This document shows positions 1 through 54,264 of a stretch of 64,000 bases of DNA, one piece after another. The DNA is from Eukaryota sp. GEM-RC1. Taxonomy: Eukaryota. The position numbers were made by a program, and so were the translations under genes. Location of the stretch: the NCBI GenBank assembly GCA_040285855.1, contig JAUFOQ010000006.1, positions 1,984,001 to 2,048,000 of the forward strand, read 5' to 3'. The stretch's first letter is position 1; the number at the start of each line of letters is the position of its first letter. Under the pieces are notes generated by a model, which worked only from the letters and a program-made list of their open reading frames with translations, had not been told where the DNA came from and searched no databases.

Positions 1-3000
1 CAATTTTTTTGGAACTGTGATGGCTGATTTTTTCTTGGTTTCCATCTAGATTTGTTAATATCTGCCTTTCTCTCCCCAGCAGTGTATCGGAACACCTTCC
101 ATTTGTCACGCCTTTTCCACTTTACAGGTTGTGGGTTAGTGTCTTGCTTCCAATCATTTAATTGTTTTTTCATTTTTTCAAACTTCCCCTTTTCTTAGAA
201 GATAATGGAGCAATCTTTCTTTTTCTAACTAGGGTAACTGGCTTGGGCTCAATTTCCTTCTCACTTGAGGAATCATCCTTCTCAACTGAGGAATCAATAG
301 ATTGTTCATTGGAAGTAAGATCAATTTCTGTAACACAAGCATTGGCCATTCCATTTTCTATCAATTGTTTTGTTTCATCGACTTCAAATTTCTCACACGC
401 CTCTTCCTCATCAGTTTTTAAACTGGCACAATACATGAGATCATGTTGGTTGGGGTCAACAGCAACAATTCTCTTAGATTTTAAATTCAGCTCTTCAATT
501 TCATCTTCACTTAAGGAATCAATATAACGCTCATTTGAAGCAAGATTAACTGCTATAACATTTTCACGGGCATTTCCATTTTCATCAAGTAAATCTTTCC
601 TCATCATCAACAAACTACAACTTAAACCGTCTGACAAAATTGAAGTGTATTTAAAGTCATAGGATAATGACTCTGGAATAGCCTGAGGTTTTAATACTGA
701 ATTCCAAATAGGTTTCCGTACATCATTATAGTTATAGGGAAGATCCCTACAAAATATTTCGTGAAACCATTGCGTATCGAACCTGATATGATTTGGAATT
801 AAAGATTTAGACAACGGGAAAGGATTGTTTGCTCTTACACCAGGACAATAGTCTTCAATGAGACGGTTCAAATATAATGCATGACTTAAAAAGTATAACG
901 GATCACTCTTTTCGGCATAGTAGATCGTTTTCTCCATCTTTCCTTCAAAATAATTAAACAAATAATTGAAGAATAATATACTCAAGTGAGATTCCGGATT
1001 GGTAAAAACTTGCTTGTCATCAAAATTAATTTTGGAAATTTCACCATTAATGATCAATTCTCTAACTTCATTAATCCTTTGACAGAGTTCTTGTCTTTGG
1101 GTTTTGTCAGTAAGAGCTTCCATTCTCTCTTTCTTTTGAGTAACCAAGTTAAAGACTTGAAAAACATACTCATGAAAGTGTTGGCTCATGTTGTTCTTAT
1201 AATTAGTAATAATTTCGGTTGCAACGTAACCGAGAGGGTTAGACAAATATAGTCCACTTGGAAACACGATCCTATCTCTGCCAACCATTTCACCAGCAGT
1301 TTCTAACAGAGGGATGTAGTTTGATAGGAAGTGTTGGGCGAACTCCTTCTTTGTAGTTGTTGTTTTTGCATTAGAAATGATGTTTTGTAAAGAGTTTTCC
1401 ACAGTTTTAATATGATCAGTACTGTTGAAAAATTGGTGATTTGGAATCCACATCATGGCCAACAGTTGTGACATTGGAGTCAACTTAAAGTAAGCTCCCC
1501 AGTCTGGTAATTCAAATTTGGTAGTTTGAATTTTAGTAAAAAGGTCAAGTTCAGGTTCACCAGTTTCATTTTCATCACCGTCTTCTTCTAAAATATGGCT
1601 GTCTTCTTCTGAAATTTCGGATTCAATTGTACGATCCAAACCAAAATCAGGGTCTGAAGTCACAGGCAATTCAGTTTCTTCTTCTAATTGTTGAGGCACA
1701 AACTCTTCACTTAAAACTTCTGTTTGTTCAGTGTCTGAAACTTCTGTGTCTGTTTCAATTTCTTCTTTAACAGTGAAAATGTAGTCAGATGGAGGTAGTA
1801 TCTCTTTGACCTTGTCGAAAATTAGAGAGTTGTGAAACTTAGTTACGAAAAAATGTTTCAACATATGAGTACCACGAACTCTGACTTGATGAGCTCTCTT
1901 AGCACAAGACTCCATCCAATTGGCTTTAGTCTTTGATACAACATTATCTAATCGTTTCTTCACTGTCTTCAATGGTGGTCGTTCTCTTAATTTTTGCTTC
2001 TTTTCATCGAGAAGATCAAAGAGAATGTATTGTATTAGAAACAACTTATTGATTGAGTTCAATAACAAAGTGGCTCTCGAAGTGTCTCTCGAAGTTTTAG
2101 ATTCCCAAAGTTCATTAAGTTTTGTTAATTCTGCTAACAATCGAATCTCCATTTCAGCTTTGGGTTTTAGTTTTACAGATGGAGCTGTGTTTTGACGTTC
2201 GTCAGTTTTAACCTTAATTTCTTCATCTGACACTAGAGGATTGTCTAAAGAGTGAAATATTCTCTTAAGGAAGATATCTTCATTGTCAAAACTTTCAAAT
2301 GTTCTTGAATGATTATTCATGTCCATCATAATTGTTGTCACGTTTTCCAAAAACCGATCTCTTCTAAAGACATACAACTTCTTCAATACTGAATTCAAGT
2401 CAAGGGAATAAAAAGGACCAATTTCCGTTGGTTTGCACCATCTATGGAACCAAGATGGAAGAGAAGAAATGTAATCATCAATTGTATAATCAATGTCAAT
2501 TTCTAATTTTTTACATCGTGATACTAAGAACGGAAAAGTATCTAAATGCCAATCATAACTTATTAACAAACTGGGCTTGTTAAGATTTAAAAATGTAATG
2601 AAATTTGTTAACATTGATTTTTCAGTTGTAAACGTGTGAACTACACAATTAGGAAGTGAAATTTCTGAAACATTATGGGTGAATAGGTGAGTTTCATTTG
2701 CAAATTTATCATGGGTAAACTGAAGAGAGATTGACACAATTGGGTCTAAATCTGGATCACGTTGAATTTCAAAAGTAGTATCCTGAATTTGTGGAATACC
2801 TTCTGAAGTTGATTCAATCTCTTCGTCTACTTCTGGAACCTGTTTAACTCGAACGACTTTAAGATTCAAGCGTTCAGGATCTGAGATCACACTTTTTACC
2901 TCAATTACACAGAACTTTTGTGGTTGTTTGGGTTCTTGTTCTGGCTGCACTTTAGGTATTGACGGAGGTGACTGAGATGGCATTGTCTGTTTACTTTCAG

Positions 3001-4630
3001 AAACAATTCTTTGTTTTCGTGTTTGAGGAGTAAGACCTGATTGACTGAGTGGATCTCTGGTCCTGATTTTTTTGGAGACACGGATAGGTGTGACAGGAAC
3101 GGGTTTTAATACTGTAGGTGGTAATGGACTGGCTGGACTGATTTTTGATTTTCGTTTTGCAGGAGTAGCACCAGATGGCTCTCTTGGTTTGGACTTACGT
3201 GACTCAGGATGATCAACAGTCGTTACCGTTGGTGGTACAAAATAATTAATAATAGTCTCTCGAACTGAACCAGCATCAATGTCCTTGTTAGCGTTCTGTA
3301 ATTCATCTTTTACAGCTGAAACGTTAACTATATTGCGATAGTTCAAAGCATGTACAAATATTCTGATATACTCAAGGACATAGACTCCTCAGTCATTAGG
3401 TGTTTGTTTCTGGGTAACAGGTACAATGATAGGCCTATACTCAAGCACACTAAGTGCTGAATTCACTGTTGATAAGAACACATTGAAGCTACCAGATGGA
3501 CATTCTACGTTTTCTTCATCTAGATAAAAATCATTAGTGTCGTAATTTGGATCAATGAACAACCACTTTCTGTGTCGACAGTCGATAATCAACAACCCCC
3601 AGTGATAACCTCTGGTACCTGTATTATTAATAACAGGAGCAATGAAATATCGGCAATAACCATTATTTGTCAATTGTTGTATGATAAACTTCGTGAGTAA
3701 AACAACATCAAATTGTTGAGTGGTTGTATCCACAGCATTGTGCAACATTAGAATCGGAGAAATAAAGCATTCAACAGGATAATTATGTAATTTTAAGAGA
3801 TACAGACAATACTGATCAATAACTTCATCATCGATCCACTCATCAGGCAACAAAGTCTGTAAGGCTGATTCAGAAATCGGTCCTGGATTGGACTCAATAT
3901 CACCATCAGCGGTGAGGTCTTCTTTGAATGGATGACGGGAGGAGAAAACTATACGTAATATGAGACACAAAGCAGAAATAGATGATGAAACAACACAAAG
4001 GATCATCTGAGGAATATTACGAGACGAAGTCGGGGGTATGATGGAAAGCACATGAACACAATTCACATAGGCTGTTTCACTAGCGGAAACGAAAATAATT
4101 CTCCAACATCTCATTATACTACCTTGGTCTTGAGGAGCGTGTGAGAGTGAAGTAGTAAGGCGGCAGGCGGAAGAGTAACTCCAACATCTCATTATACTAC
4201 CTTGGTCTTGAGGAGCGTGTGAGAGTGAAGTAGTAAGGCGGCAGGCGGAAGAGTAACTCCAACATCTCATTATACTACCTTGGTCTTGAGGAGCGTGTGA
4301 GAGTGAAGTAGTAAGGCGGCAGGCGGAAGAGTAACTCCAACATCTCATTATACTACCTTGGTCTTGAGGAGCGTGTGAGAGTGAAGTAGTAAGGCGGCAG
4401 GCGGAAGAGTAACTCCAACATCTCATTATACTACCTTGGTCTTGAGGAGCGTGTGAGAGTGAAGTAGTAAGGCGGCAGGCGGAAGAGTAACTCCAACATC
4501 TCATTATACTACCTTGGTCTTGAGGAGCGTGTGAGAGTGAAGTAGTAAGGCGGCAGGCGGAAGAGTAACTCCAACATCTCATTATACTACCTTGGTCTTG
4601 GAGAGCGTGTGAGAGAATTGATGTCGACAT
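1..4630 (-). CDS. Putative polyprotein: repeat leader / 2A / Ulp1-like protease / PolB exonuclease-like domain / Fanzor (TnpB-like); one in-frame TGA, one frameshift, truncated by the window edge
   Basis: ORFs 3389..4654 and 170..3346 are in the same frame, separated only by TGA at 3389-3391 (..QKQTPND*GVYVLEYIRIFVHALNY..). Motifs: DIESNPGP; WIDDEVID..HWGLLIID..FID; DPIVSIS..TEKSMLTNF..PSLLISYD; YVATEIITNYKNN, PFPLSKSLIPNHIRFDT, ILSDGLSCSLL, IVAVDPN. Adding one A to the A-run at ~173-178 restores KKQLNDWK..KWKVFRYTAGER, matching the second Fanzor. First ATG is at 4630. Confidence 0.75.
3878..3928 (-). other. 2A-like ribosomal skipping (StopGo) peptide
   Basis: Translates FKEDLTADGDIESNPG|P, matching the D(V/I)ExNPG-P consensus, after a hydrophobic stretch. 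Confidence 0.8.
4101..4616. repeat. 78-bp tandem repeat, ~6.6 copies (26-aa unit SHAPQDQGSIMRCWSYSSACRLTTSL on the minus strand)
   Basis: Unit starts ctccaacatc at 4101, 4179, 4257, 4335, 4413, 4491 and 4569. Confidence 0.97.
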
Positions 4631-7092: not shown

Positions 7093-10000
7093 TTAGTATT
7101 TTCCTGAGGCAGAGTAGGTACGCATATATTCAATCAGTTCAGTTAAAACATCGCATTTGACACAATTTGGACATTCAACATTGTTGCAAAATTTAAAGGT
7201 ATCAACATATTGGTCGATTGAAAACGGCTTGAGACCACCAATGTCATAAGATATGTGCTGTAGATCAATAACTGATCCAGGTTGTACATTTGTAACAAAT
7301 GTGAGTTTCTGTTGAAGTATCGCGATCTGTTCAAATAGTGATGATGGAGAGATTCTTAATCTTTCAGCCAGATATAGAATAAATCGACATCGATTAAGAC
7401 AACCAATGACATTGATCAATTGAGATAATACATCTGCATCATAATCATAGTCAAGTTGATCACCGTCAACATTAAGAATTGCAATCTTTTGTTGTTCAAT
7501 AGATCCCTTCGTAAAATTGAGAAACATTAGTTGGGTGAATAAATTTAATAGTGTAGGCTGAAAGTAGCAACATAATAGGGGAAACTGTTTTTGTGATGAC
7601 ACAAAAACACCAGAGTAATTGTAGCAACAAGAGGCAGGTAAACGAGTGAAAAGTGAATTGTCAAATTTGAAATCAATGCCGTCTACAGAACCATTCAGTG
7701 TAGTACACTTCAAGGGTTTTTGATAATAATTGTTTTCAAACATCGGTACCATATTAAGTTCTAGTTTTCCATTACGATCACAAACAAGATGTTTATTTAA
7801 CAAATTGGCAATCTTTTGATTAGTAAGACGCTTTTGTTTATCCATATCATGAAGTGGTTTATAATTACCAGAATCCAGACCGACCGAACAATGCACGTCA
7901 TTGATGAACGGCAATATGCGTTTATGAAATTTTGAAGCAACCTCATTTTCGAACATTTTGGCAAAGACGAGAGGTGTTACAGTGTTGTTGGATTTGTAAA
8001 GGGTTAGAAACAAACGCTTTGGATGATCTTTAGGTAGCAAGTGTAAATGAACACTGTTTTTCAGGTATTTTGAAAAACATAGAACATCATTCAAATCATT
8101 GAGGTCGAGTGGTAGTAAATCCCGCATCATTTGTTGAAAGATACATTCAATAGGAACTTCAGTTGGAGATGTGAGGACTGTTGACCTTCGTGGACTACGG
8201 AACAAAATTGTATTGTTAGGATAAGATGAAATAAACAACTGGGTCAATTTTTCTGATTCTGTTAAGTAGCAAAGTTGTTGATAGAATTGCTGATTCTGGA
8301 AAGCAGACCATTCATTATTATTCTTATCGATAAAAGTACGGTTGAGATTAAAGTTTCGAAATTTGAAGCGATTAGTGAGTAACACCTTAACACGATCTGC
8401 ATTATTAAGCATAGTTTCAAAAATGAATTCCAAGGAGTCAATATGGCCTTTAAATGAATCATCGACTTGTTGTTTCCACTTGATGATCTGATTAATTTTT
8501 CTAATTAGTGTATCACAGAAAAACTTGAGAGATTGGATATTTAAATAGTCCAGAACTTCAACATTGATTGTACCAGATAGTAATCGGAACAAAAATTTTA
8601 ACATAACATTTAAATCTGAATATCCATGATCAGCGTCATCAGCAAGATACAATTTCAAAAAGTTCCCAAATTTAGCAACTTGATTTACACTATCTGTATG
8701 AAACTTGAAGTTGAACAATTGTGTATCAAATGCACATAATAGGACCAATCCCGGAATAACTTGTTTTCCAAAAAAACAATTAAAAACAAAATGAAAATGT
8801 TCATGAGAGTCACAAAACAAAATTCCCATTCGACCCAATGGTGTTAGTCCATCTACGATATATTCACTTTCCATGATGTTTCGAAGATATAATGAATGCA
8901 TTGCTACATCCAAGAGATCATCCTTTGGTGGATCAGGCATTGACTTGATAAATTTTCGTGGTGTGTTTGAAATCCTTTTGACTGTTAAAAGAAAATCTTC
9001 CAAGGGAGAATTAAGAATTTGGGGCAATTTAGTTTGATGCCTGAATTCGTTGCCGATATATTCAAAGTCAAATAATCTGATACATATACCAGGCATGGTT
9101 CGACCAACTCTCCCAGCACGTTGAATTGCTGAGGACTTTGAAACATGGTGGAGAATCAATTCCTTTTTATAATTTGGAATTCTTTCAAGTCCAGTGTCCA
9201 AAGCGATCACTGCATTGTCAATTGTGAGGGAAGACTCTGCAATGTTCGTAGAAGCAACTATTTTAAATTCTTTGTTTTGAGGTTTACTTGTTGCCTTCTG
9301 TTGATCATCTCCACTCATGTCAGAATCTTTCATTACACGATTTCACTAGAGCATCAGCCTCAAAAGCACCAGGTAAAAATACAATGACTGTTACACCTCT
9401 CATATCGATTGAAACGTTCCAATAATCAAGGATAATATCATAAATGGAACAAAGTATTTCTGTCAGTGCTCGTGTATTAATGATTGAAGGTTTTACAAAT
9501 TTGGAGCACATTTTCTCGAAGTTATTTCTATATGTCCGTACAGCTGCACGTAAATCATTTTGATGACTCAAAACAGCAACACCAAATTCGGATGGAAACC
9601 CAAGCGTCAGCTCGTCAGTCCACTGACACGTATCAAAATTGTTAAAGTCAAGAACATTCAGTGTTCTTGTGAAGAAACCTGTATCAAATGAATACATAGC
9701 TTGTTGATCAATGATGTCAAAGTCACATGAATTTTTTGAATCAAAATATGAGAATATTGAATTCACTTCACCTGATTTTGAACCCAATGTAGCTGAGGCA
9801 AATCCACGTACAACCGAAGAGTCTTGCAAATTCAATTTCATTGACGTTAAAAGCAGATCAACATCCATCGACCTTTCATGAAATTCATGGATGATGACAA
9901 CTTTGAATTTTGATTGAAACATTTTGGGATTTGCCATCAGATTGACAGTAAGCCCAGTTGTCTGATAATGAATCAGTGTACTGGCAGTGATATTATTGTC

Positions 10001-10849
10001 ACCTCCACCAAGTTGGAAAGCGGCAATCGGTAGATCAGACGTGAATTGACTACCTTCTCGTGTACCAGATGATTTATTTAAAAATTGGGCAAGAGCTCTG
10101 CAAGACATTCGGGTTGGTTGCGACACAATAACATTTGAGAGAAAAGCCATTGCAAAAATGATTGGGGAAATTGTGGATTTTCCTGAGCCAGTTGAGCCAG
10201 TAATTACGTATGGAAAATCCGATGGCTGTTCTTTATAGCAGGAAATGCAATGGTTAAGTAATGTCACAAAAGACTCTTGACCATCTGCAGTTGATACAAA
10301 AGATAGCTTGTGTTTAGTCTTAGCTTTGTAAAGAATGTTCATCATGCAAGATAAATGAACAATACTGATAAGGTTATGGTTCTTGACATTTTCTATCCAG
10401 TGCGGAAAAATTAAATCGCAAACCTTTGAAAGAAAGATATCGCCCAATTCGGTAAACTCTTTCTTCAGAACGTTGTATTCAGAGGGTGGAGTTGGATGAA
10501 ATATTTCGGGGAAACTACTTTTCGAAGTTACATGACATACTTACTTCTGCCATACGATCTTCTTCCATAAGAGATTCTTCCATACGATCTTCTTCCATAA
10601 GAGATGAAACATGGTAGAACGAAAACCACTTTGTACAATACTGCCTTGGTCTTGAGGAGCAGAGTACAAAGAAGCGACGACAGCGGAGGAAACAGAGTGT
10701 AAAGAACTTTGGACAATACTGCCTTGGTCTTGAGGAGCAGAGTCCGCAGTTGTTACGATGAAAGGATTCATGTAAACGAAAGAATTGTATCTACATGAAG
10801 ATATCTCACCACACTTCTTTCTGATAGTTCTTTCCCACAGACTTTTCAC
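7093..10849 (-). CDS. DEAH/RHA-family helicase-like protein (frameshift at ~9330; probable 27-30 nt intron near 10515-10544)
   Basis: GSTGSGKST (Walker A), VSQPTRMS, IIHEFHERS (degenerate DExH), SAT, VFLPG, STNIAESSLTID, QRAGRVGR. ORF 10541..10849 is in frame with 9320..10447, and the intervening TAA lies within GTAAGT...AG. Confidence 0.75.
10635..10743. repeat. Two copies of a 31-bp motif, 78 bp apart, related to the 4101-4616 repeat
   Basis: acaatactgccttggtcttgaggagcagagt at ~10635 and ~10713; its core differs from atactaccttggtcttgaggagc in the 78-bp array by one base. Confidence 0.9.
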
Positions 10850-12464: not shown

Positions 12465-12473
12465 ATAAATATT

Positions 12474-12660
12474 GTTACACATCTTGTATTACAGATCTTG
12501 TAAAACATATATTGTATTACTGATCTTGTGTTACAGATCTTGTATTACAAATGTTGTGTTACAAATGTTGTGTTACACATCTTGTATTACACATCTTGTA
12601 TTACGAATCTTGTGTTACAAATCTTGTAAAACACATTTTGTGTTACAAAAAGCACTTGTA
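12474..12660. repeat. 14-bp tandem array (TTACACATCTTGTA-like), ~13 copies
   Basis: atcttg and variants at 14-bp period: 12481, 12495, 12523, 12537, 12579, 12593, 12607, 12621. Confidence 0.92.
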
Positions 12661-12923: not shown

Positions 12924-13067
12924 TCAGAAGATCCTGGCAGTATCTTCTTGACTAAGTCCTAAGAACAAATACCTCCATACAGCACGTGCTTTTAAGTCTT
13001 CTGAGGGTTTTAGGGGAAGAGATCGAAAATCTTCGTGTGAATGAAGAAGATCCCAAGTCAAACACAT
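12924..13067 (-). pseudogene. Tc1/IS630 transposase N-terminal HTH remnant 1
   Basis: MCLTWDLL..PSEDLKARAVWRYLFLGLSQEDTARIF aligns by eye with MGYTYDML..ASEDTIVRAVWTYYWLGKTQAQIAEYY of the transposase at 55014. Confidence 0.7.
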
Positions 13068-13159
13068 TGTGATGTAAAAGAAGTCTTCAAGAACGGAAGA
13101 GAAGGCGAGGAAGATGAGGGAAAATGTTAGGTCTAAAATGTGAAGATCTAAAATGCGGA

Positions 13160-13309
13160 TCAGACCTTTATGCATCTCGCAACTGCATCTTGGCTTTCAC
13201 CTAAGATGAGGTGAGTGTAGACGGCCCTGGTCTTCGTATCTTCAGATGGACGTCGACTGAGTTGTTTTAAGTCAATTCCTTGTAATAGCATCTCAAAAGT
13301 AAGTCCCAT
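13160..13309 (-). pseudogene. Tc1/IS630 transposase N-terminal HTH remnant 2
   Basis: MGLTFEMLLQGIDLKQLSRRPSEDTKTRAVYTHLILGESQDAVA aligns with MGYTYDMLFDANIDIRQLCCNASEDTIVRAVWTYYWLGKTQAQIA. Confidence 0.75.
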
Positions 13310-13434
13310 TGATGGATAACCAAGGAAATTTGGGTTGGTGAAAGATGTGCTGGTGAGAAAAATTTTACCACCAACTAGAACTAGAATATGCAACCAAAGT
13401 GAAAACCACTGACCGACTTTCAACTTTCAACCCA

Positions 13435-23705: not shown

Positions 23706-24350
23706 TTACGTTTGCGCTTTACAAAAGCTTTCATAAATACCTAAGTTACATTTACACGAATTGGGGTTAATAAGTGAAACATCATCAGGAAATCGATTAA
23801 CAAATTCAAAAATGAAAGGTATTCCGCCCCTAAAAAAGCAGATTTGCAATGAATTGACGATTTGGTAAAACCAAGTCACCAAAATGAGCAGAAGTCTAAA
23901 GTGACGTTGAATCAACTTCTAACAGTGAAGCAAAAAATGATTAATCCTCAACTCGTTAAAAGATCTACAAAAATTCAGATCGATTGAAGGAGCTGTAGAT
24001 CTCAAAAGATAAGTCATTTTTCCGGAGTAGCAAATTTTTAAAATTAAAAACTTAATACTAGTCAGTTTTTCAATATCATTTGAAGAAATTGTGTTGAGTT
24101 CTGAACCACTTCTTTCCAAATAATTAGATAATTCTTGAGAAATTTTAGGAACATTCCCAAGCCAACGTCCTAGAAAACGAAAAGCGTCTTCAATATAATT
24201 GATAAATGGAATCTGAACTCCATTAATAAATACTAGTAATTCTATATCACAGTTTGATGTACAAACCGTTCTGACATCGAGTGATAATACTTTTAGCAAA
24301 TTCAAATATTGTATAAACTTTTTAATCCTTTTTAGCGTGATGCATGCCAC
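23706..24350 (-). pseudogene. Non-LTR retrotransposon RT/thumb remnant
   Basis: FRFLGRWLG..LILKICY..TYLLRSTAP pattern; SFNELRIN is shared with the copy at ~43240. Confidence 0.65.
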
Positions 24351-27269: not shown

Positions 27270-29400
27270 ATGCCCTTATGGCCTCGTAAACGCCCCAAGG
27301 ACTTTCATCGAGATGACAATGTACTTTCCATACCACCTTCCCGTTCTTCCTCTTTCCATACATCTCCACTACGGTCTTCTTCTAGTTCTGCTCTACCTGT
27401 TCCTGTATCCCGTAGTTCATCATTTCACGATTTTTCTCCCGAGTTACTACAAGTCCCTGAACCAGACATGGAAGTTCTATGTCGTATTTGCGAGGATTAT
27501 GTTCCCATCTCTCTTCTTGAAGACCATTCCCGGTATTGCTCTGTTGTTACCCGAGCTGACATGCGTATCTCCTCCTGTGACGAACGTTTAGATAAAATCA
27601 TTGCAGCTATAAACAGAAGAGTCCGAAACCAAAGGCAAACCACCAGTAAACTCCACTCCAGTAGTAGTGATGATCAGTTCCTAGAACGACTTGAAGATGA
27701 CGATGTTGAACTTCTTGAGCAACTATCAGCAACAGCCCTACGAGCTCGCAACCTTTCCGACGACTCTTACTCCTACACCCAACTTCTTGTCTTCAGGGAT
27801 TCCTTCTTAGACCAACTTAAACATTTCCAGACTCGATTCATTAGTAAAAAGACCAGATCATCCCTAACTCTATTCAGTTCAATAGATAGCGATATAGGTG
27901 CTTCAGAATCCACGGCATCTGTCCTCCACTATATTAATCGAGTTGAACGGCTTATTGTTGAAAAACTAGCTGCCGCTGAAACCTCTTCGTCCGTCTCCCC
28001 TATTCTCTCCCCTGCTTCCTCCCGTGGTATTATCTCCCCCATCCCTCGTCATGAACACGTCTCTCCTCTTAGAAAGGACATGTCCAGACTCTCTTCTCCT
28101 GGTACTGACTTCCTTGGCTTTAACCGCGAAGGCTCTCTCACTCAACGATCTCGACCATCTTCTGCTGGCTCTACTTCCTCTCCCCATCGTCTCCCCCTCC
28201 ATCTCAGACTTTGAGATCATTAAACCTATTTCTAGAGGAGCCTTTGGTAGGGTTTTCCTGGCTGTTAAGAAGAGAACTGGGGATACCTATGCTATTAAAG
28301 TACTGAAGAAGGATGATATGGTCAGAAAGAATCAGGTTAATCGGATCAAAACTGAACGTAACATTCTGACCTCTACTGATTGTCCTTTCCTAATCAAGTG
28401 TTACTGGACATTTCAATCATCAAAACACCTCTATATCGTGATGGAATACGTCTCTGGTGGTGATCTCTACTCCCTACTAAACAACGTGGGTCGATTGCCA
28501 GAGGATACAGCAAAGTATTATGTTGCGGAGGTGATTCTTTCCTTGGAGTATCTTCATGCTGTAGGAATTGTTCATCGTGATGTAAAACCTGATAACCTGC
28601 TTGTTTCGGAGGACGGTCACATCAAAATGATTGATTTCGGTCTTTCCCATTACGGAATTGAGACACGGTCGGAACAGAAACCTTCCTTTTCTGACAGTGA
28701 TTCTGATATAGAGATCTCTCAAGCGTCCACTCACAGCAAAGCAAGTGATACCTGTAAAGCAAAACAACGTCGTTTTTCTGTGATTGGAACGCCAGAATAC
28801 CTAGCGCCTGAAATCATTCAAGGATCTGGTCACGATCACTTGGTTGATTGGTGGTCGCTGGGAGTCTTGTGTTTTGAGCTGATATCAGGACTTCCTCCTT
28901 TCGAAGGAGATTCAAAAGAAGAGATCTTTGAGAATATATGCAATCGTAACATCTCTTGGCCTGATGACGTTTCCTTCTCAACTCACGCTGTTTCCTTTGT
29001 CACCTCCCTAATGCAATTAGACACAAGTAAACGTCTGGGTTATAACGGTATTAGTGAGATCAAAGCTCATCCCTTTCTTGCTTCAATTGACTGGGGCACT
29101 CTTCTAACTGAACCTGGTCCTTTCATACCTGTTCTATCTGAAGAACACGATACTTCGTACTTTGATTCGAGGTCACCTCCCCCTGATAGTGAGCCATTTG
29201 GAAGTCCGCAATCACCTCCTTTAGATTGTGGTTCTCCTACTTATGACGATCCGAGGTTTCCGAACTTTGCTTATAAGAATATTCATCATTTGGAGCAAAT
29301 GAATTTAGCTGTGAGTGATGAGTATAGGCGGCGAAAGAGTTTTGTACAGGTGATCTCTTCTGAGGATGATTATGATGATTGTGAATATTACGATATATAG
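27270..29400 (+). CDS. AGC kinase, IRE/Rim15/Greatwall-like (frameshift at ~28195)
   Basis: CRICE..HSRYC zinc finger, then KPISRGAFGRV, HRDVKPDN, DFGLS, GTPEYLAPE and an AGC tail (DTSYF). Confidence 0.88.
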
Positions 29401-34174: not shown

Positions 34175-36719
34175 TTACTCTGGATTCTCAGAATTTTGTT
34201 CATGTATAGGATTTACAGTTGCCAATACAGGCGATACTCCTTCTAACTTTTGTCTAAACATATTAAGCTTATAGTCGAGTTCTTTTCTTGGAATTTCTCC
34301 TGTAACAACTCCACTCTTAGACTGAGGTCGGAGCCATCGTCCAAAAAGAGTGAGTAAAACAGGGAGGAACAAAAAGGAGACCACAGTGCAAATAGTCATA
34401 ATACACAAAGTGATTTGGAAGAATACCGAAAACAATTGACTTTGAAATGACACACTTATAACTGAAATCAAAGTAGTTGAAGCTCCATGAATAACTCCAG
34501 AGTGTTGGGATACTGAAGCAATAACTCGTTCACGGACAGAATTACCATTAGTCTGAGAGAAGGTGTAGACAATATAAGAAACAAAGTCTACTGCAAAAGA
34601 AATATTAAGTGCAACGAACAAAAAAGTAACAGAATTCAAAGGAATATTAACTAGATAAATGTACAATGAGAACATTCCCTGCACAACTATCAAAGTAAAG
34701 GTAATAGCTAAAGAACCTTTAACAGAACCAAGGACAAAGATAGACAACACGAAACCTGGAAACCATGGCGGCGGCAATATTGATGAAGATGTGGAATTTG
34801 AGAGTTTTGTATTGCTCAAATAATTGAAATTTCTCTGAATACAGCACCCCTTCCAGTCCAGTTTCTTCCAACTTACTCGAGAACTTATCACGCAAGTCAT
34901 TCAGTTGTTGTCCTTTCTCCTCGGTATCTTGAGCTCCTGTTAGCAAGACTCCAAGACGAAGACCAACTAGAGAGGAATCCGAAAGGAGAACATCAACAGC
35001 AAAGTGAGCACCATCAGTAGCCAAGAAGTCTGTGAAAAGTGTGTTAAAGTATTCTGGTTTAGGGAATCCATGAGAATCTAAATACGTCTTGAACTCGTCC
35101 TTCCTCAGGAAATTTAAAAAGGAGTAAACAAGATTAATAGAAGAACTGTTGTCTAGAGTAATACTGGAATCGAGCTCAAGTAGTATCTGGTGAATTGAGT
35201 AGAAAGTATCAGTTGTACCAAGATCGTCACCTGAAAAGACCAACATACCGTTAAACAAATCGTTTTCAAAGTAATCTTGTTCAAACTTCATGAAACTACT
35301 CAAATGACGATCTTCTGATACAAAAATTCGTTGGTCAAGAAAAGTGGAAATTTGGGAATATTTGAAATATCCTACACCAGCTCCAACAAGGAACAATAAA
35401 AAGACGACAACAACGACAAAGGGCAAAGTTATCAACTTTTCAGTAAATATTTCAATAATCCTACCGATTCCCATTCCCCGTTTCTTCTTTCCAGATTCGG
35501 AAGGTTTTGACGTGTACTTTAACATGAACATTAAATCAGCATAACATGACAAAGGGAAAATAGTTACTTGGAGGATGAAGTTAATCAGTAGTGCAGATCC
35601 AGTTACGAAACAGAAAGCTTTAATACCAGGAAGTGGTGAGAGAATAAAAGCAAATAGAAAGGCAAACACCGTGGTGAAAGTAGAAAGAACAATACTACCA
35701 GCTGACGTAAACATGGCTGCGGAGAGTCTTGAACAAGGAGAAGCAAAGGGTGAGGACCTAGCAAGAGCAGAAGAGAACGTAAAGGAATCATCTGAGCCCA
35801 TAGCCAAGACAAGAAGTGGGGAGAAGCCAAGAAGAGAAGTTGTAGTGAAAGAAAGATAATGAGCGAGACCTAGAGCAGCGGTTGATGATGCAGTGATGGA
35901 GAGAAGACATGAAATGGTGGGTACGAAACGGAATCGCAGGGAGACGTCCTTGGAACGACCCATGAAGAAAGCAATGTAGATAGCGAGGAAGACATAGCCT
36001 ATGAGATGATAGTCAGGTCGTAGATAAGATTCAGAAACCTTTTGAGAGATGAATACAGAAGGAGAGGAGATACCAATGGTAAGACCAGAAACTCGTAAGG
36101 AGTCAGATACTAGAGTACTGGAAGAGATGTGGGAGAACAGAGAGTGTTCAAAGGAGGAGACTTGGGGATGGGTGGAGTTAAGGTGGAACTCCATGCGGAG
36201 AGTATGCGCAGATGAAGTGGGTGGTCGTAGGAGTAAGTGAAGAGAAGGGAGAAAGTCTTTGGCTGTTGATACAGGGTCGGGGTCTTCTTCAAAGTCATCT
36301 AAACTGTCCCAAATGGAGGAGAACGAAACAGAGGAGAGAACAGAGATATTACTGAAGGATAGTCCTAAGTCGTGATCAATGAAAGAGGTAATCAATTGTT
36401 GTATTAGTACAGCAGAAGAAAGACGTTGGATTTCAAAACAAGATGATTGGTCAGAGGTGGACAATAGTACTACAAAGTGACGGTGATGAGGGAAAACATC
36501 TTCAATGGATTGGCGATCTGATCTTGTTTGACTATTGAGAGGTAAGAACTCATCAGCAATAGAGGAATTATCTCGTTCTTCAAAGAAGAAGCCGGACCAA
36601 CATGCACATAAGAGAGCAAGAATAAGAAGGCAAGTAAGAAGATAGCGACGGGTCGTAAAGAGCACTAAGCGACTTAAGGCGTTGCTGAGAGCAGTATTGG
36701 GTCTCTCTATCAATCTCAT
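34175..36719 (-). CDS. Patched/NPC1-like sterol-sensing multipass membrane protein (frameshift at ~34760)
   Basis: PLLVLAMGSDDSF, GSIVLSTFT, PGIKAFC, second TM bundle (SFAVDF..GASTT). Confidence 0.8.
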
Positions 36720-39803: not shown

Positions 39804-42689
39804 ATGTCCCTCGCAACTTCCTCAGTTTGTCCATCATTAGACTCTTCCACCTGTCTTGTCATTCCTTCTCTTAGAACCATTTCTTTGTCAGAATCTCAAT
39901 TGGTCTTGATCAATTTCTACTTACTTAGACGACGATTCTCTTTTCCACAAAAAGAAAGACGGGGGTCTTTTCAAACATCAAACTCAAACGCATTCACTCC
40001 ATCGTTTGCATAAAGTGATATCCTTCTTCTTTGATACTGTTGGATATGTCAGTCAGCGTTTTTTTCGTTGCACCTTTCCTGCAGTGAAGATCTTTCTCGA
40101 AGCAACCACGATCCCTACTTCAACTGAGCTTCCCAAACTCTCTGCTTTTGCTGCTTTCTTTGGTAGTCAGATCAATTCAGTCTCTTTAGTGTTATCTCGA
40201 AAGTCTCAACCCAGTAACTTCACTAAGTATTCTTCTATTATTACTCTCTTGGAACTTTCTCTTTTCGATGCTAAGTGGAAAAGTCTGCTTGATCATTCAT
40301 CTCCTCATTTCTTGCCACGTGTAACACGTGTTCACTGCTTTCATTTTTCTATGGAGAGCGTCCGTTTGATGTGTAAGTCTTTAAAGTCAAATACTGTTGT
40401 GACAGATTTGTATTTTGAAATGGATTCTTTTAGTTCAACTGAAGCAACTTCTCTTGCAGAAATGTTTTATTCAAATACCACTTTAACAAATGTTAAGCTA
40501 AGTCTTCATTCTCGTTATGCCTTGCGAGATGAAGATGTTTCGATTTTGTTTAATTCTCTTGGAGCTAATTGTTCAGTTCAACAACTTGATCTATCTAATC
40601 TTCGTCTACAATCTTTCAATTCTCTTTTACCACTTCTAAATAATTCTAGTATTAAAACTATCTTGTTTCCTCGATGTGATGTCTCTCATTCTTCTTTCTT
40701 TGACGGTCTTATGGACAACTCGTGTCTTCAAGAACTCAGCTTCAATCATTCTAATTTTTGTCTTGAAGGACTTGCAGAGGTCATAAAGTTCAACAAAACT
40801 TTAAAAAAGTTGACAATGTTGTCAAATTCTTGTCTATCACCAATTTTTAAAAGTCTTGAATCCAACAATGCTCTACTAGAACTTGATCTTCGCTGTTCTG
40901 GTTTTGATTCTACATGTCTCGAGTCTTTAGTCGGAATGTTACTTAGAAACAGAACATTACTTGTCTTGACAATTGATTGTAGTTTTGCTCCAGCAAACTT
41001 TGACTCCGTATTAGAAGCTCTGGCAACCAATCCAGTACTTAAGAAAGTCAGTTTTCCTTCACTAAATCTGGGTTGTTTAATCTTGATCTTCAAAGCCAAA
41101 TCGACTCAAAATTCAATTTCAAATATCCATGTTGATGTTGCTCCTCATTCAATTGATGTTTCACGTGGAATTATTCATTATGACCGAATGGTTTACAACT
41201 ATGAGCTGTCGGCACTTTTGAAAGCTTTGAAATCCAACTTTCCTATTAACAGTGTTGAATGTCGTGGTCTGGGAGATCTCAATTTAGAATCAATTCTAGT
41301 ATTATTTGAAATTTTGTCTATTAACAAATCAGTCATTGATGTCAATTCATCTCCACATTTTATTGATATTTCTTCTGGAACTATTCATTATCAAAAAGTT
41401 GTTCGTACTGATGAGTTTTCCTTACTTTTAAGAGCTCTAAAATCAGGAATTCCCCTTAATCGTATTGAATGTCCCGTCGTGAGATGTGGAAATGTGAAAG
41501 GTCTTGTAACGTTATTTGAAATTCTGTCCATCAACAAATCATTGATTGATGTCGATTTTGCTCCTCATTTCGTTGATGTTGAACGTGGAATCTTTTGTTA
41601 TTCACCAGTAAAACGTACCATCATAACTAGTCAAATGGTTTTAAATTTGAAACATCTTCTGAGTTCCTTTGATGTGAAGGAGTTGATTTTTAAAAATGTC
41701 GCTTTGCCAACAGTGTCATCTCTATTTTGAGTGATTTGTTGAGCAAGACATGTTCGTTGACTGTGATTGACTTTAGTGAATCTATCCTAATTGATGAAGA
41801 TTTTCTGATTAGTAGAGCTCAATTCATTCCTGAATCGAAATATGTCAATCTTTGTACAAGTATTATTGGAGTTAAAAGTCTTTTAACTGTGTTTGAGCAA
41901 TTCTACACTCACCAATCACTTAAAATTGTACGAATTTCAGATCATTCAATTGATTTTGGTTCTAATTTAATTAGTTACAACCAATGTATTACAAATGATG
42001 ATTTAGTTCAATTTTTAAAAGTTTTAAAGTTCAATATTCCTGTTAAACGACTTGATTGTACTGGATTGAAAAGCCCAAATTTAGAAGGTCTAATTAATTT
42101 GTTTCAAATTCTTTCCATTAACAAGTCAGTTATCAATTTAGATATTTCCCCTCATTTAGTTGATGTTGAAAATGACGTTCTTTGTTTTTCTCCAAAAAGG
42201 TCCACCAAGATATCAGCTGTTGTTGTCTCATCATTAGAGACTTTTTTAAATAAGTTCAATGTCCAGGGACTTTTACTTAAAAAGTGTCGCTTTGATGAAG
42301 ATGCCATGACTGCTTTGTCTGTTTTACTTAGGAACAACAATTCATTGACTTCTCTTGTCCTCAGTCACTGTAAACTTTCTGATGAAAATTTCAAACAAAT
42401 TGTGAGTGCACTTCAGCTTAATTCATCGAGGCTTGACAAACTTAGTTTAGGTGGAAATTGTATTGGAAATGAAGGTGCTATTGCATTGGCGGATACATTG
42501 AAAGAGAATTTGTCTATTAAAACGATTTCTTTGGGATCAAACTCCATTGGAAATGAAGGGGCAGAATCAATTAGTCAAGCATTGTTAATGAATACCAATG
42601 TTACTTTGATTAAATTATTCTCAAACCCAATCGATTCTAAAACGAAAGAATATGTTTGTAGAATTTCCAATGATCGGGTAATCTGTTAA
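39804..42689 (+). CDS. RNI-like leucine-rich repeat protein (two frameshifts)
   Basis: LSLGGNCIGNEGAIALADTLKEN repeats and internal ~58-aa repeats (LFEILSINKS..D..PH.ID). Confidence 0.75.
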
Positions 42690-43199: not shown

Positions 43200-45015
43200 T
43201 TCTAAAGTATGCCTTGATCGTTGTACAGATCAATTTGATTCATTTAACGAGTTGAGGATTAATTCTGTTGTATCATTGATAAAAGTTGATTCAACGTTAC
43301 TTAGAAGTCACATGTTTACTTCTGCTCGGTTTGGTTGTATTGTTTTTTCCAAATCGTCAATTCTTTGCTTTTTATAGATGGCGGAAAAAGTTTCATTTTT
43401 GATGATATCACTTATTAATAATAAACATTAGGAAATACGTTATTAACCCCAATTCATGTAAATTTTTATATGACTTAAACGAAACGCTGGTAAAACTACT
43501 TTTTGAAGTTTGGTTTCAATGTGTCCCAGAATCTGTGTCTGAAATACCTGCAAGATGTTTGACTAATCTTCAGTTTTGTCTGAAAAAATTGCAACAAATA
43601 CTAACATAGATATTTCAAAGCATGGATTATAATGTTCGACTTGGCATGGCCAAAGAAAATTGGCTTTGGACTGCTTTTGCAAATTTCTTAATGAATGTTT
43701 CAAATAGCTCTGCTTCATGTATGATTACTCAAATCCCTCAAGTTCACGGTCGTTTTCTTGATGATAACTCTTGGTCATTAAACATCCGTTTACAGTCATT
43801 TATTTGGCCTGATAACCTTCCACACAATTTGAAATGCTAAGGTGGGCAATCTGTAACACCTACACATATATTGAATTGTAACCGTTATATTTCTTTTAAA
43901 AGTGAGGTTCATGATTCTGTAAGGGATCAACTATATTTTATGTGTAAATCTTAGAGTTGCACAGGACGTATTTTACGTACACGTCCGTCTTGAGACGTAA
44001 CTTCAGATAAAGAGACGTTAGTGTCTGTTCAATATTGGGGTTATAATTATCAGCAAATCCCGTCACTTATCGACATCTACAGTGCCACTATTATGTACTA
44101 AAGTGAATTGACCAGGAATTTATTGTTTCTTTAGTGTCATAAATTATATTTGTTTGCCCTTTTCGTGTATATCACATCAAATCATCTAAGAAGAGTGGCC
44201 AAAACAAATTACTGAAGTCAATTACTGGATTCAGAAACTCTTCTGTCCTCACAATGAACCACATCATCTTCACCATCACCCACTTGGTCTTGATCAATGG
44301 TTCCTGTCATCAGGATTCACTTCAAAAGCAATGTTATAGTGACCAATTTATGATCATGATGAAAATGGAGAGATGATGAGGGGAGGAGGAAAAATGTTGC
44401 GTCTACCGAATTTCACGTATTGGAACGAATTAGACGTGGACGCGTATTAATTCGTATTTTGACGTGCCAAGGTGACGTATTGTGCAATCCTAGTAAATCT
44501 TATGGAATAGTCTCCTTTTTAGAACCAGTTCTGGCTGGTTTGTTTGATGATACAGATGTTGAAAAATAGTTTGGAAATAGCCGTGGTGATGTCATATTTC
44601 CTGGTCTCGATGGATCATTCATTATTGCTGATGTTATGTCTATCGACGTTTGTAATGGTTCCAACAATAAACTTGATAAATTTAATGCTAAAAACACTCT
44701 GTTGATTGGTGAAAAATGTAAAATGGAACAGTATTGTGCTAAACTGAAATTATTGAATTCGGTTTCACACTCTCATTACTTGTTGTACCCTTTTGTATTT
44801 TCATTGTACGGTTCTTAAGGTGAATCTGCAACATCATTACTTGAAATCTTTGTGAAGATTGTATAAGAAAAACATCTAGGACTTTTGATCTGGTATAGAA
44901 GGTATGGGGACTGCTGTAACTAGCGCTTTGTTATCTCTTGGCAGACAATATGAGGATAAGGTAGGTGAGAATTTCCAGATAGGCAATCTGGACTTTGAGG
45001 ATATTGATTATTAGA
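43200..45015 (+). mobile_element. Degraded non-LTR retrotransposon 3' half (CCHC knuckle + restriction-like endonuclease), interrupted by a MITE
   Basis: SFNELRIN; HILNC..HDSVRDQLYFMCKS|YGIVSFLEPVL is restored when 43952-44500 is removed; SRGDVIFPG..IIADV..YPFVFSLYG. Confidence 0.7.
43952..44492. mobile_element. hAT-type MITE (541 bp)
   Basis: Imperfect TIRs TAGAGTTGCACA / TGTGCAATCCTA; 8-bp TSD GTAAATCT at 43944-43951 and 44493-44500; ACGT-rich subterminal motifs. Confidence 0.85.
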
Positions 45016-49192: not shown

Positions 49193-50376
49193 TTAGTTGT
49201 CACAAGATGTGTAATACAAGATTTGTAACACAAGATGTGTAATACAAGATGTGTAATACAAGATGTGTAATACAAGATGTGTTTTACAAGATGTGTAATA
49301 CAAGATGAAACTATCAAAATTACCTATATTGTCCAATCTTTTCAAAATTAAATATAATTCAAATAAAACACACATACCAGTCTTTTCATCATTTTTCAAA
49401 TACTCTTTCAAAACATGAAACAATTCCACAAGCACATCACTACAATAACGTTCATCAACATTATCCTTATTAATCACATCGGTAATGTAACAGTTCCTTA
49501 TTGTTTTCACTTCCATACTTGATGCAGATTCAGATCCAATACAATCTAGTACATTATCGACAATTGACTGAATTCCAATAGTTAAGTCCACTCTCAATTG
49601 TTTGTAAGTAGCAACACGATTATACTCCAAAATAGGAGACAATGATATTGTTTCATAAGTCACATTGTCAGTTTGTTGATATTCACATATGGAATCACAT
49701 TTTTCATTTTCAAAGCTTTCAGTCTGAACTTCCTTGAGACAAAATCGTTTTTCATCATCAATAAGAGGAAACACTTGGGAACTTTTTCTTTCTATACCAG
49801 CACTGACATTCTTATTTAATAATAAATTCTTCGTTGGTAAAGGGGTTTTCTTCAAACGGGGAAGCGATGGTAGAGTAATGTTGCCTCGTGGTAATTGAGG
49901 AAGTTTAGACTTATTGACACAAATCTCAGCAGAATTTTTGTTAAAAATTGAGTCACAATTAATAAATTTGGGAGGAATATTAGTTTCATCTTCTTCAAGT
50001 TCATCATTTACAACAAAATCATCTAAACTTGTTGAAATTGTATCATTATCAGATTCATCACCAGAATCGGATCCTGATAGTACAGCTTCTGTTTCAAATA
50101 AATTTGATTTTTCGAAATGGTTTAAACGATTTTTTCCAAGTCAATAATTTTTTCATCAACATTATCAACAATAACTTCATCAACACAATGAACATCTTCA
50201 GGAACAACAACATCATCCGTAATTGGTTCACTCGATTCTGCACAAAAGTTTGCAAACAATGAATTAAAATGATTGAAATCTCGTTGAAGACAATGTTGAT
50301 TTCCCAAAACATACAAATCAATAGTTGATGGCTTAACAGGATGAAAAGTTGAATAATACCATTGATACAATTCCAA
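49193..50376 (-). CDS. Hypothetical protein antisense to Fanzor (probably one frameshifted gene)
   Basis: ORFs 50122..50376 and 49193..49855; ends within the 14-bp array. Confidence 0.4.
49201..49307. repeat. 14-bp tandem array, ~8 copies; reverse complement of the 12474-12660 array
   Basis: caagat at 49203, 49217, 49231, 49245, 49259, 49273, 49287 and 49301. Confidence 0.93.
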
Positions 50377-50401: not shown

Positions 50402-53350
50402 ATGCTTAAAATCTTTAAACTCCTCCAAGACCGTCTCAGTGTTATCCGAAATCAAAGAGCAACAGTAAGGGGTTCTAATTTTTGAAACATCTCCTTATTT
50501 GTGAGTTTGAAACACGTGGATGTGAATTAAATTTGATGAATCGTCATTACTTTCGGCAATATCTCTTAGAATCTTCTGTTTCGGAATCAAAAGAACGAGA
50601 TTTAATGTACGAACATGATTTTTTGGAGAAACGACTTCGTGAAATGGAGTTAATGTATGAACATGATCTTTTTGAGAAACGACTTCGTGAAATGGAGTTA
50701 ATGTATGAACATGATTTTGATTCGTATCCATCAGAACTTTCTGATTTGTTGGCATTAAATGAACGTAAATTAATGAAGAGCCATGATACAATGCCTGATT
50801 CTGATGATGCATCTGTTTCTGATCCGTTAGAACCTTCTGATTTACCCCTCTACACTAAGTTTTCAGTAGTCTTACCAGATTTGAAAAAACTGCTTAAACA
50901 CGATTCTATTAGACAAGTATTGAGACGGATGTATGTGAAGAAATCAACTGGTTCTTCAATTACAGAGTCAGAACTAGAAATGTCAAGAGCAGAGGCTCAA
51001 AAAGTGATTGACGATTTCCAAAAATCTTCAAGACTAGAAATGATCGAAAAAGAAAAAATTGCATTTCACTACTTGAACAACTTTTCTCCACTTCTACAAC
51101 AGTTGTCTGATGAAATTGGAACAAATCAAATTTCATTTCCTGATTCTACGTCAATGTCTCCCATATTTCATTACACTGCCAAACAAATTTCTACAAATTA
51201 TGCCAACAATATGGTCAAAAATTTTCATGATTATGTATTCAGATTCTTTAATCTGGTAACAAGAAAGAAAGTAAGACTTGAACAGATAAATGATCAAGTT
51301 GATAAGAAAGAATTGATTTCGAAATTGAATTCAGTCAGAGATTCGATTATCGATGGAAATTTTGATGACATTCCAATTGCAGATCACGAGATTTTCCCTA
51401 ATCCACGTGAAGAACTAACGTTGAGGTTTTTTTGCGTATTTGAAATTTTCATTGTTTCCAATGTTTTCAAAAAGAACATTTACTATTTACAGAAAGCAAA
51501 GCCGACAGAGTTAATTTCTCATGCTCTGTACATCAACCGAACTATACAATCTTTGTGTTTGGTTGATGGAAAACCAATCAGTGTAAACAACCCTTTTCCA
51601 ATGACGAAGACATTGATTCCTCAGCATATTCGTTTGGACACAGGTTGGATGAATGATAGATTTGTTCATATACGTGGCAAAAATGCAGATGAAATAAGAA
51701 AAAAGGTCTTTGATCAGGTCCTTACTGACAAAGCTGTGGCACCAACAAAATCATTTGTCTTTAGATATTCTTCAATTCTGACAGATGGAATTTCTTGTTG
51801 TTTGGTTTTAATGAGGAAAGATTTGGTTGATGAAGATGGAAATACTTTCAAAGATTTTACTGCTAAATCTCTCGGAACTGCGGAAAGATACATTCACTCT
51901 TTATCAAATGAGAATATTCACGAATTACAATTGAAAGAAAAAAAGAATTGTCGGTGTCGATCCCAATGAATATGATTTAATGTATTGTGTTTCAGAAAAG
52001 ACAGTCGATGAGCTTAAAGATGAAGATATTTCAGAAAATAATCCACTCAAAAAACGATTACCCTCAGAAATCAGAAGTAAGAAAAGAGGAGGAATTAAGA
52101 AAAGAAAGAAACAATTACAAGATTGGAAAAATTCGAATAATGATGTAAAATCAAAGAAAAAGGCTAAGCACAAATGGAAAAAGTTTAATTATACAGCTGG
52201 AGAAAGAGCTTACGATAGGAAATCTAAAAAATATCGTAAATCTGAAAATAGAAAACTGAAAGAATTTTCTATCGAATCACCAGACGAAACTGTCACTGAA
52301 AGACAACTTAAAGATTTTTTGGTTCTCCACTCTGATAGAATTCTTGTAACAGGAAGAGATGTCACTAACCAATTCTCCAATGCTGTATCAAACGGGGAAA
52401 GAAAGTCGTGTTTCAGTGACACATTTGGAACATATATTAAAGAAGCTGAAAGATATAACGTATATTTGAGTTCTTTCTACGAAGATGACTGGTTTAGAAA
52501 GAGGAAATTCCAAATTTATTCTAATAACCAACGTTCGGAGAAAAACATGCTGGAACGCTTCAATTTAACATATGGACCTCCAGAAGATGTCGTCATTGGG
52601 TATGGGGATTGGAGCTCAAAAGGTAAAACAAGAAAGGGCAAAACCTCTACTGTTAGAGGAGTGGAAATCCGTAAAATGTTAAGAAGATATGGATACCAAA
52701 TATTTCTTGTTGATGAATACAGAACAAGCAAGTGTTGTTCCAAATGTGCTAAGGAAAAATCAACTTTCGTAGAATGTGAAAATGTTTCGGAACTAAAGGT
52801 TCTTGGTCCCAAAGGTAAGAGACAGCTAAGAAGGAAGAAGAGAAAGTTAAGAAGAGAAATTTTGCTCAAAAACAAACAAGATCCTCTAAACCAGCGGGAT
52901 TTTTGGAAGCAGAGTGGGAGGTGAAGCAGAAGTCATTGGAAGAAGAAGCTAAATCCACACCCTGGGGACTGGTAAAGTGCTCAGATGCTGATTGTGGTAC
53001 TTATTGGAATAGAGACCTAAATTCTGCCATTAATATCTATTCCATCATTGAAGCAACGATCAATGGTCAAGGTAGGCCATCCGCTCTCGAGAGATCTAAA
53101 ACTCAAACAACAGATCTCAAGAGTGGTAAGGATACTTTGGCGAGAGACCAGAAGAAGAAGAAGACTGCGACCAAAAAGAAGAAAAACTTCAACAGGAAAG
53201 AACAAAACTTCGACAGGAAAGAAGAATACATGTGGAAATTGTGGCCAAGAAGGTCATAACAAAAGGTCATGCCAGAATCCACCAAAAGAAATGAGTTCGC
53301 CTAAAAGAAGAAGCGTAAAGTCAGTCAAGAAGAAGAAGGTCTCTCGTTAA
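50402..53350 (+). CDS. Fanzor1-type (TnpB-derived) RNA-guided nuclease with C-terminal CCHC knuckle; four homopolymer frameshifts
   Basis: VRGSNF(L)KH; YTAKQISTNYANN; PFPMTKTLIPQHIRLDT; ILTDGISC; IVGVDPN (RuvC-I, shifted frame at ~51950); IGYGDWS; VDEYRTSKCCSKC; CSDADCGTYWNRDLNSAINI (RuvC-III); CGNCGQEGHNKRSC. Confidence 0.85.
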
Positions 53351-53504: not shown

Positions 53505-54264
53505 CAGGAGTTGGAAAAATTGCATTGCCAATTAATTGTTCTCAGTTTTTCAGAGACAATGAATTATTGCAATTATCACATGTGCTACAATTAATTGGGC
53601 AATTAATTGGTCTGTGATAAATTGACCATTTGCACTTAAAAGAAAGTTCAAAAGTTTGTTCTTTATGATAACAAAACTAGTTTTTCAGTGTACAATCAGT
53701 GTTCATTAACGTCTTGCAGGATATTGTGCGCTTAATACCGGAAAATTACCTATTGAGTTCGTTTTCTACAAAGTTGAACGGTCTGAGGCCTTTAATAACC
53801 AACTTCATTCATTTAAAGTATTCTGAGTATTTGTCTTCAATTACAAATGTGCCAAGAGTGCTCATTTGCCTTTCATCAAGTCATTGTGCTCCTGTTGAAA
53901 ATTAACATGCTTTGTTCTCAGATGGTTGGAAAGATTTGTTCACACGTTACCTTTCAATATCATTGCTTTGCACTTACAAGTGTAGTGTTGCCCTTTGACG
54001 TGAGCACTTTTTCCAGAATCGGACGGAGAAAAGAAAGTCAAGCACAGAGTACGATTGTATGTAGGTAAAGGAAGGAAAGTGTTTTATTGTACATCTGCAT
54101 TCTGTTATCTGTTTGTAATTTCTATTCATTTCGTGCATTTGAAACCCCCGTGATAATTGCAATTAATTGCCCAATTAATTGTCGTCCTATTTTGGGGCCA
54201 ATTACTTATTGCAATTAATTAATTGGCAATAATTTAATTGGCAATGCAATTTTTCCAACTCCTG
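53505..54264. mobile_element. hAT-type MITE (760 bp)
   Basis: 31-bp perfect TIR CAGGAGTTGGAAAAATTGCATTGCCAATTAA; 8-bp TSD GATATCAT at 53497-53504 and 54265-54272; subterminal CAATTAATTG motifs. Confidence 0.92.

Follow-up and report, generated by a model that had tools for sequence, protein, structure and literature searches.

Fanzor1 proteins are often captured by DNA transposons and have variable N-termini (Bao and Jurka, 2013; PMC3627910); the main text of that paper contains none of the words "protease", "peptidase" and "fused". A C48/Ulp1 domain fused to a mobile-element protein is known from Ulp1-bearing Ginger1 and Mutator-like elements, where it lies C-terminal to the DDE transposase (PMC2836005). 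In the L1Tc, Ingi and CR1/L2/Rex1 retrotransposons, a GD(V/I)ExNPGP motif follows a short leader near the N-terminus of a long ORF, and the 2A motif by itself lacks activity, an appropriate upstream context being required (PMC3708506). The range stated for StopGo/2A comprises RNA viruses and retroelements (bioRxiv 10.64898/2026.09.24.754024). The Naiad retroelements carry in-frame UGA at conserved Cys positions of a transposon ORF, with three to four such codons in the family consensus and a predicted SECIS (PMC8557442).

We analyzed a stretch of 64,000 nucleotides (hereafter the window) from Eukaryota sp. GEM-RC1; GEM-RC has been placed among the skoliomonad metamonads (PMC11316075). One element in the window resembles the Fanzor1 DNA transposons of PMC3627910 in being a multi-copy Fanzor1-like element with a variable N-terminal half, and differs from those described there in that Fanzor is C-terminal to a 2A-like motif, a C48 domain and a PolB-exonuclease-like domain, and in that no transposase was identified in the window element. 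It shares with the Ginger1 and Mutator-like elements of PMC2836005 the fusion of C48/Ulp1 to a mobile-element protein, whereas here the protease is N-terminal, after the 2A-like motif, and joined to Fanzor; some GEM-RC1 family members, unlike Ginger1 and Mutator-like elements, carry a second, Ser-substituted C48 domain. The motif near the N-terminus of the long ORF and the short leader before it are as in the retrotransposons of PMC3708506, but a protease follows the motif here and no reverse transcriptase was seen in the window. Finally, an in-frame UGA at a conserved Cys recalls the Naiads; unlike the Naiads, the window element has a single UGA in a single copy, its sisters have Cys, and a SECIS was not found in the window. 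No description of a protease-Fanzor-2A arrangement was found in the literature searched, whose scope excluded most subscription papers. The element family is a new combination of known parts, and its novelty lies in the element, not in the TGA codon. The features of the locus are summarized in Table 1.

Table 1. Features of the protease-Fanzor locus and of related sequences in the 64,000-nt window
Feature	Positions	Strand	Remarks
Frame break in A-runs after RuvC-I, leading to TGA 170-172; Fanzor-like sequence resumes in another frame	161..180	-	
Fanzor1-like region up to RuvC-I	173..1600	-	Upper end approximate; remaining nuclease beyond window start
DNA polymerase B exonuclease-like domain, in the protease frame	2498..2908	-	Pfam PF03104, E 3.5e-7
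C48/Ulp1-like cysteine protease domain	3245..3877	-	Pfam PF02902 and family profile against Ulp1/SENP structures
TGA on the catalytic Cys position, private to the window copy	3389..3391	-	Cys in P0002, P0003, P0005
2A-like (StopGo) motif DIESNPGP, preceded by G, directly N-terminal to the protease domain	3878..3901	-	
In-frame array of tandem 78-bp units within the leader, before the 2A motif	4101..4600	-	Ends approximate
DExH helicase-like gene in two frames	7093..10540	-	Break near 9330; ends at TAA 7093-7095
14-bp tandem array	12473..12649		Inverted match at 49201-49307, upstream of the second Fanzor copy
Second Fanzor1-like copy, divergent and lacking a protease	50479..52924	+	A-run frame break near 51945

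An earlier, sequence-only reading of this DNA had placed an in-frame TGA exactly on the catalytic cysteine of an Ulp1-type protease, with the His and Asp present upstream and with a frame that stays open for more than 1000 codons. The sequence bears this out: the codon lies within CCT AAT GAC TGA GGA GTC TAT GTC (translated Q-K-Q-T-P-N-D-*-G-V-Y-V), and 434 open codons precede it and 1072 follow. When the stop is read as X, residues 351-464 match Pfam Peptidase_C48 at E 4.3e-4 and 20.6 bits (cutoff 20.7), and sister copies score 30.4 and 29 bits. A profile built from 22 family sequences matched yeast Ulp1 and human SENPs at E values of 1e-12 to 1e-8; in the match to yeast Ulp1 1euv (E 1.3e-12) the D-C-G is aligned, and the TGA is thus, by alignment, the catalytic Cys position of the C48/Ulp1-like domain. 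The assignment to C48 is supported by both the Pfam match and the profile match to the Ulp1 structure. In the window copy the His (3602-3604), the Asp (3551-3553) and the oxyanion Gln (3404-3406) are intact; the complete His-Asp-Gln-Cys set is found in the sister copies and is incomplete here, the Cys being lost to TGA.

We compared this position across copies at the protein level. A search among longer proteins matched three of 686 candidates: P0002, P0003 and P0004, the last being the gene model annotated for the window copy itself; P0005 was added from the cluster of P0004. The sisters P0002, P0003 and P0005, all NCBI-named Eukaryota sp. GEM-RC1 proteins, share 88, 94.5 and 97% identity, respectively, with the window frame, and all three read Q-K-Q-T-P-N-D-C-G-V-Y-V. 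The last residues of P0004 are T-P-N-D, which shows that the annotation takes TGA for a stop; as the sisters were compared as proteins only, their Cys codons are taken to be TGT or TGC on the ground of this treatment of TGA. Shorter close models cut at the TGA numbered 0 in 136 candidates, a count that speaks for close copies only (the search by near length missed distant short members that a later exhaustive search found). The exhaustive homologue search yielded 18 representatives; the 10 examined, with their cluster members, are all GEM-RC1 proteins. When 43 proteins were searched, 30 gave 37 C48 domain alignments: 24 with Cys, seven with Ser and six that do not cover the site, and among the latter only P0004 ends at the TGA site. 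A UGA common to close copies was therefore found in none of the three sisters, and no other of the 30 C48-aligned proteins ends there. Outside the annotated proteins, a metagenome scan gave one locus (L001, 28% identity) from 73 stretches, and the single viral contig searched did not match.

The seven Ser domains are of one degenerate type, H-T-L-T-D-S-G, with Ser for Cys and His for Gln, and belong to the subfamily of P0007, P0013, P0014, P0020, P0027, P0028 and P0036. In P0013, P0014, P0028 and P0036 the degenerate domain stands in tandem behind an intact first domain. Judged by its sequence, this Ser-substituted C48-like domain is a conserved pseudo-protease.

We favor, with a probability of about three in four, the reading that the TGA arose by nonsense mutation and is private to a single copy of a mobile element that exists in multiple copies and carries Fanzor. 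A TGY codon would have become TGA by one transversion after the window copy had split from its sisters; the ribosome would stop there, giving a protease fragment that lacks its nucleophile and no downstream Fanzor, and the window copy would be dead for both the protease and the Fanzor products. Besides the stop, 18 amino-acid changes are private to the window copy across the 1218 columns in which two or more sisters are aligned, and the sisters have 5-20 private changes each over the parts covered ("private" being judged against two to four sisters per column). From the ratio of nonsense to missense paths (580/8099), 1.29 nonsense changes are expected, with a probability of 0.72 for at least one; the figure of 1.29 is an upper-side estimate, because some of the "private" changes may be subfamily differences that have passed selection. 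In order of magnitude, the mutation load fits one stop. Against mutation stands the exact codon. Counting the single-base paths to a stop, a single random nonsense change hits the TGA codon with p of only 0.0013-0.0017 when all 1235 codons between the protease start and the frame end are considered, and a transversion is needed; within the C48 domain, the catalytic Cys codon is hit with p of 0.007-0.010. The coincidence of about 1 in 600 per stop is notable for one locus and is within chance over many copies and windows, given at least 19 named Cys-bearing domains and a scan of many windows. Two further explanations were discarded: CpG-driven decay (CpG observed/expected is 0.58 for the element and 0.62 for host genes, with no excess loss, and deamination does not turn TGY into TGA) and an intron that removes the TGA (the sisters are colinear across the region).

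A base-call or consensus error would mean that the DNA has TGT or TGC and that the window copy is more intact than it appears. The GEM-RC1 sister records come from a nanopore assembly with short-read correction, and fragmented BUSCOs amount to 8.9% for the genome and 3.0% for the transcriptome (PMC11316075). The element, the second Fanzor copy and host genes all show single-base breaks in homopolymer-like runs, and several sister models have shared end points (P0010 with the window; P0027, P0028, P0035 and P0037 together; P0015 with P0029), a pattern expected of systematic run-length errors; the A/T run ratio drops from 0.33 at length 6 to 0.22 at length 7, a weak indication. The suspected errors are indels, however, whereas the TGA results from a substitution and does not lie in a homopolymer; sister-copy reads, if used in polishing, would be apt to draw the codon toward TGY, and the 18 other private substitutions indicate that a real substitution process suffices. 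We consider an error at this codon rather unlikely. The two mundane options that the sequence-only reading had listed, a TGY to TGA nonsense mutation and a base-call error, stand, and its headline of recoding fails the comparison of the codon across copies, all three close sisters having Cys and no other model ending there.

Recoding of the UGA as selenocysteine (or Cys) would make the window copy a seleno-protease with gated Fanzor synthesis. The UGA aligns with Cys in homologues, as is expected of a eukaryotic selenoprotein, and the exact coincidence with the nucleophile (p of about 1/600) is the sole argument for recoding in chance terms. Selenoprotein transposons have a precedent in the Naiads (PMC8557442), and selenocysteine is used, and its machinery present, in some metamonads (PMC6759080), so that the lineage in itself would not preclude it. 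The UGA is nevertheless found in one copy only, with Cys in a sister that is 97% identical, and the 1072 open codons after it are explained by the sisters, in which the downstream frame is continuous with the protease. In the window, none of five Rfam matches at E ≤ 5 is a SECIS family (the 3' UTR lies past the window start), and none of 10 matches to a crude SECIS-like pattern lies downstream on the minus strand, where the ORF runs off the window start. Sequence 3' of the TGA folds no better than shuffles (z 0.91, -0.53 and 0.79). C after a stop codon favors readthrough; the base that follows this TGA is G. The only tRNA in the window is a tRNA-Lys. The string "seleno" is absent from the text and from six of the seven supplements of PMC11316075, an absence of the word and not the outcome of a targeted search by the authors. 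Taken with the sister copies, this makes recoding very improbable. A selenocysteine here would amount to a natural seleno-nucleophile protease. To our knowledge, none has been described.

A changed or context-dependent host code, with TGA decoded as Cys within genes, has in its favor the position of this single codon alone, and we regard it as having almost no likelihood. The earlier view that TGA is an ordinary host stop, with no general code change, agrees with the ends of 17 host ORFs: five in TGA, seven in TAG and five in TAA (these are ORF ends, with gene ends unverified). Cys is encoded in the same ORFs by TGT (94) and TGC (29); the acyltransferase fragment and the element ORFs were left out of the count. 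All 24 Cys-bearing family domains are annotated through the site, whereas the window model stops. As originally posed, the TGA finding is an ordinary stop in one copy, caused most probably by nonsense mutation. By itself such a codon has little weight: scanning many repeat copies yields one-copy stops at catalytic residues, and comparison of sister copies weeds them out.

A second in-frame stop had been taken to show that the element may be decaying. The stop exists (TAA 7093-7095) and lies in the helicase frame, with an AT-rich gap between that frame and the protease frame; as evidence for decay it is weaker than it seems, since host genes break frame too. One-base frame breaks in the element are found at 161-180, near 9330 and near 6550, with short introns possible at some of them, and host genes break near 28200 (kinase), near 57670 (ATG9-like) and near 41700 (LRR gene). 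Because host genes have frame breaks as well, the sequence may contain errors; frameshifts in the element therefore do not prove decay, and the family may have suffered less damage than it seems. The host genes split by frame changes in the window are a kinase (28190-28214), an ATG9-like gene (57650-57700), an LRR gene (41694-41730) and a Patched-like gene (34720-34900), named by eye unless Pfam-tested; these splits may reflect short introns or indels in the assembly.

Sister P0010 terminates at the residue where the window has its TGA 170-172. That TGA was rejected as a second nonsense mutation, at an Arg, because it follows from the one-base frame break and is common to P0010. Each Fanzor copy requires a -1 shift within an A-run close to RuvC-I, the two sites being different (161-180 on the minus strand and 51935-51960 on the plus strand). 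Both shifts are probably run-length errors and, less likely, sites of programmed frameshifting. No RNA structure was detected downstream of the 161-180 break (z 0.03).

The G-D-I-E-S-N-P-G-P of the window copy fits the GD(V/I)ExNPGP of PMC3708506. D[IVT]ExNPGP occurs at most 30 aa upstream of the first C48 domain in 16 of the 18 members that could be assessed (N-terminus present), and is missing before C48 in P0023 and P0026, which are distant, unnamed proteins. The motif is kept in members only 25-36% identical to the window and the leaders differ; its persistence in divergent members with varying leaders suggests that it is under selection. In intact copies, the predicted 2A site would free the protease-Fanzor chain from the short variable leader, and the protease, going by its predicted activity, would likely strip SUMO or ubiquitin-like tags or cut the chain further. 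The annotated start ATG is at 4628-4630 (minus strand), and the 78-bp array of the leader has about six units in the window copy and about three in sister P0005.

The core of the 78-bp unit is also found in two copies at 10616-10758. By eye, the unit resembles short transposase HTH-like fragments at 12924-13426 and the start of an IS630/Tc1-like ORF at 54936-56102, the latter matching Pfam DDE_3 at E 5e-21. A second 2A-like motif, GDVENNPGP, occurs at 63810-63833 (+) in an unrelated ORF (63540-63998) that runs off the window end and has no Pfam match. The residues after this motif resemble an RNase H1 N-terminal domain. Use of 2A in the GEM-RC1 genome may extend beyond a single element family.

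Read through the stop, one frame encodes the leader, the 2A-like motif, the C48 domain, a Pro/Ser-rich linker, the PolB-exonuclease-like domain and the Fanzor1-like region to RuvC-I. Overlapping sister models tile the full frame (P0003 over residues 316-912, P0007 over 585-1056, P0006 over 760-1494 and P0010 over 761-1507, with P0041 covering the 2A motif to window position 1484), and no single model spans all of it. The exonuclease-like domain (Pfam DNA_pol_B_exo1, residues 596-732) is found as well in P0003, P0007, P0014, P0015, P0027, P0028, P0036, P0039 and P0041. The RuvC-I Asp motif of the Fanzor1-like region is VAVDPNQHDLMYC, with the Asp codon at 455-457. Sisters P0006 and P0010 are 92-94% identical to this region and 37% identical to the second Fanzor copy, which in turn matches Spizellomyces Fanzor1 (E 1.2e-8); through this link the first copy is Fanzor1-like, and the earlier assignment to Fanzor holds. 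The second copy matches the Spizellomyces, Parasitella and Guillardia Fanzor1 structures, has DEYRTSKCCSKC where Fanzor1 has [TS][TS]xx-C4 zinc finger, and ends before the terminal RD motif.

We infer that the helicase-like gene belongs to the protease-Fanzor element, and the 14-bp array is a possible shared element end; together with the protease-Fanzor frame they would form one element of more than 12 kb. Neither a transposase nor a reverse transcriptase of the element was identified within the window. Shortly past the second Fanzor copy, perfect 31-bp inverted repeats 698 nt apart (53505-54264) are likely a MITE. Dispersed inverted matches at 23750-23933 and 43268-43463 are likely remnants of another repeat family. 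An acidic protein of 498 aa built of 57-bp-based repeats is encoded at 45946-47442 (-).

The locus is consistent with an undescribed Fanzor1 element that produces its RNA-guided nuclease in the form of a virus-style polyprotein, in which a working 2A would free the C48/exonuclease-like/Fanzor chain from its leader, in a metamonad and with no reverse transcriptase seen; from its sequence, we hold the chances of this to be evenly balanced. If the 2A site works, StopGo recoding would extend to a Fanzor-carrying element, beyond RNA viruses and retroelements, and the metamonad ribosome would support StopGo. The family would then provide a Fanzor with a built-in processing or deSUMOylating activity, as predicted from its protease domain.
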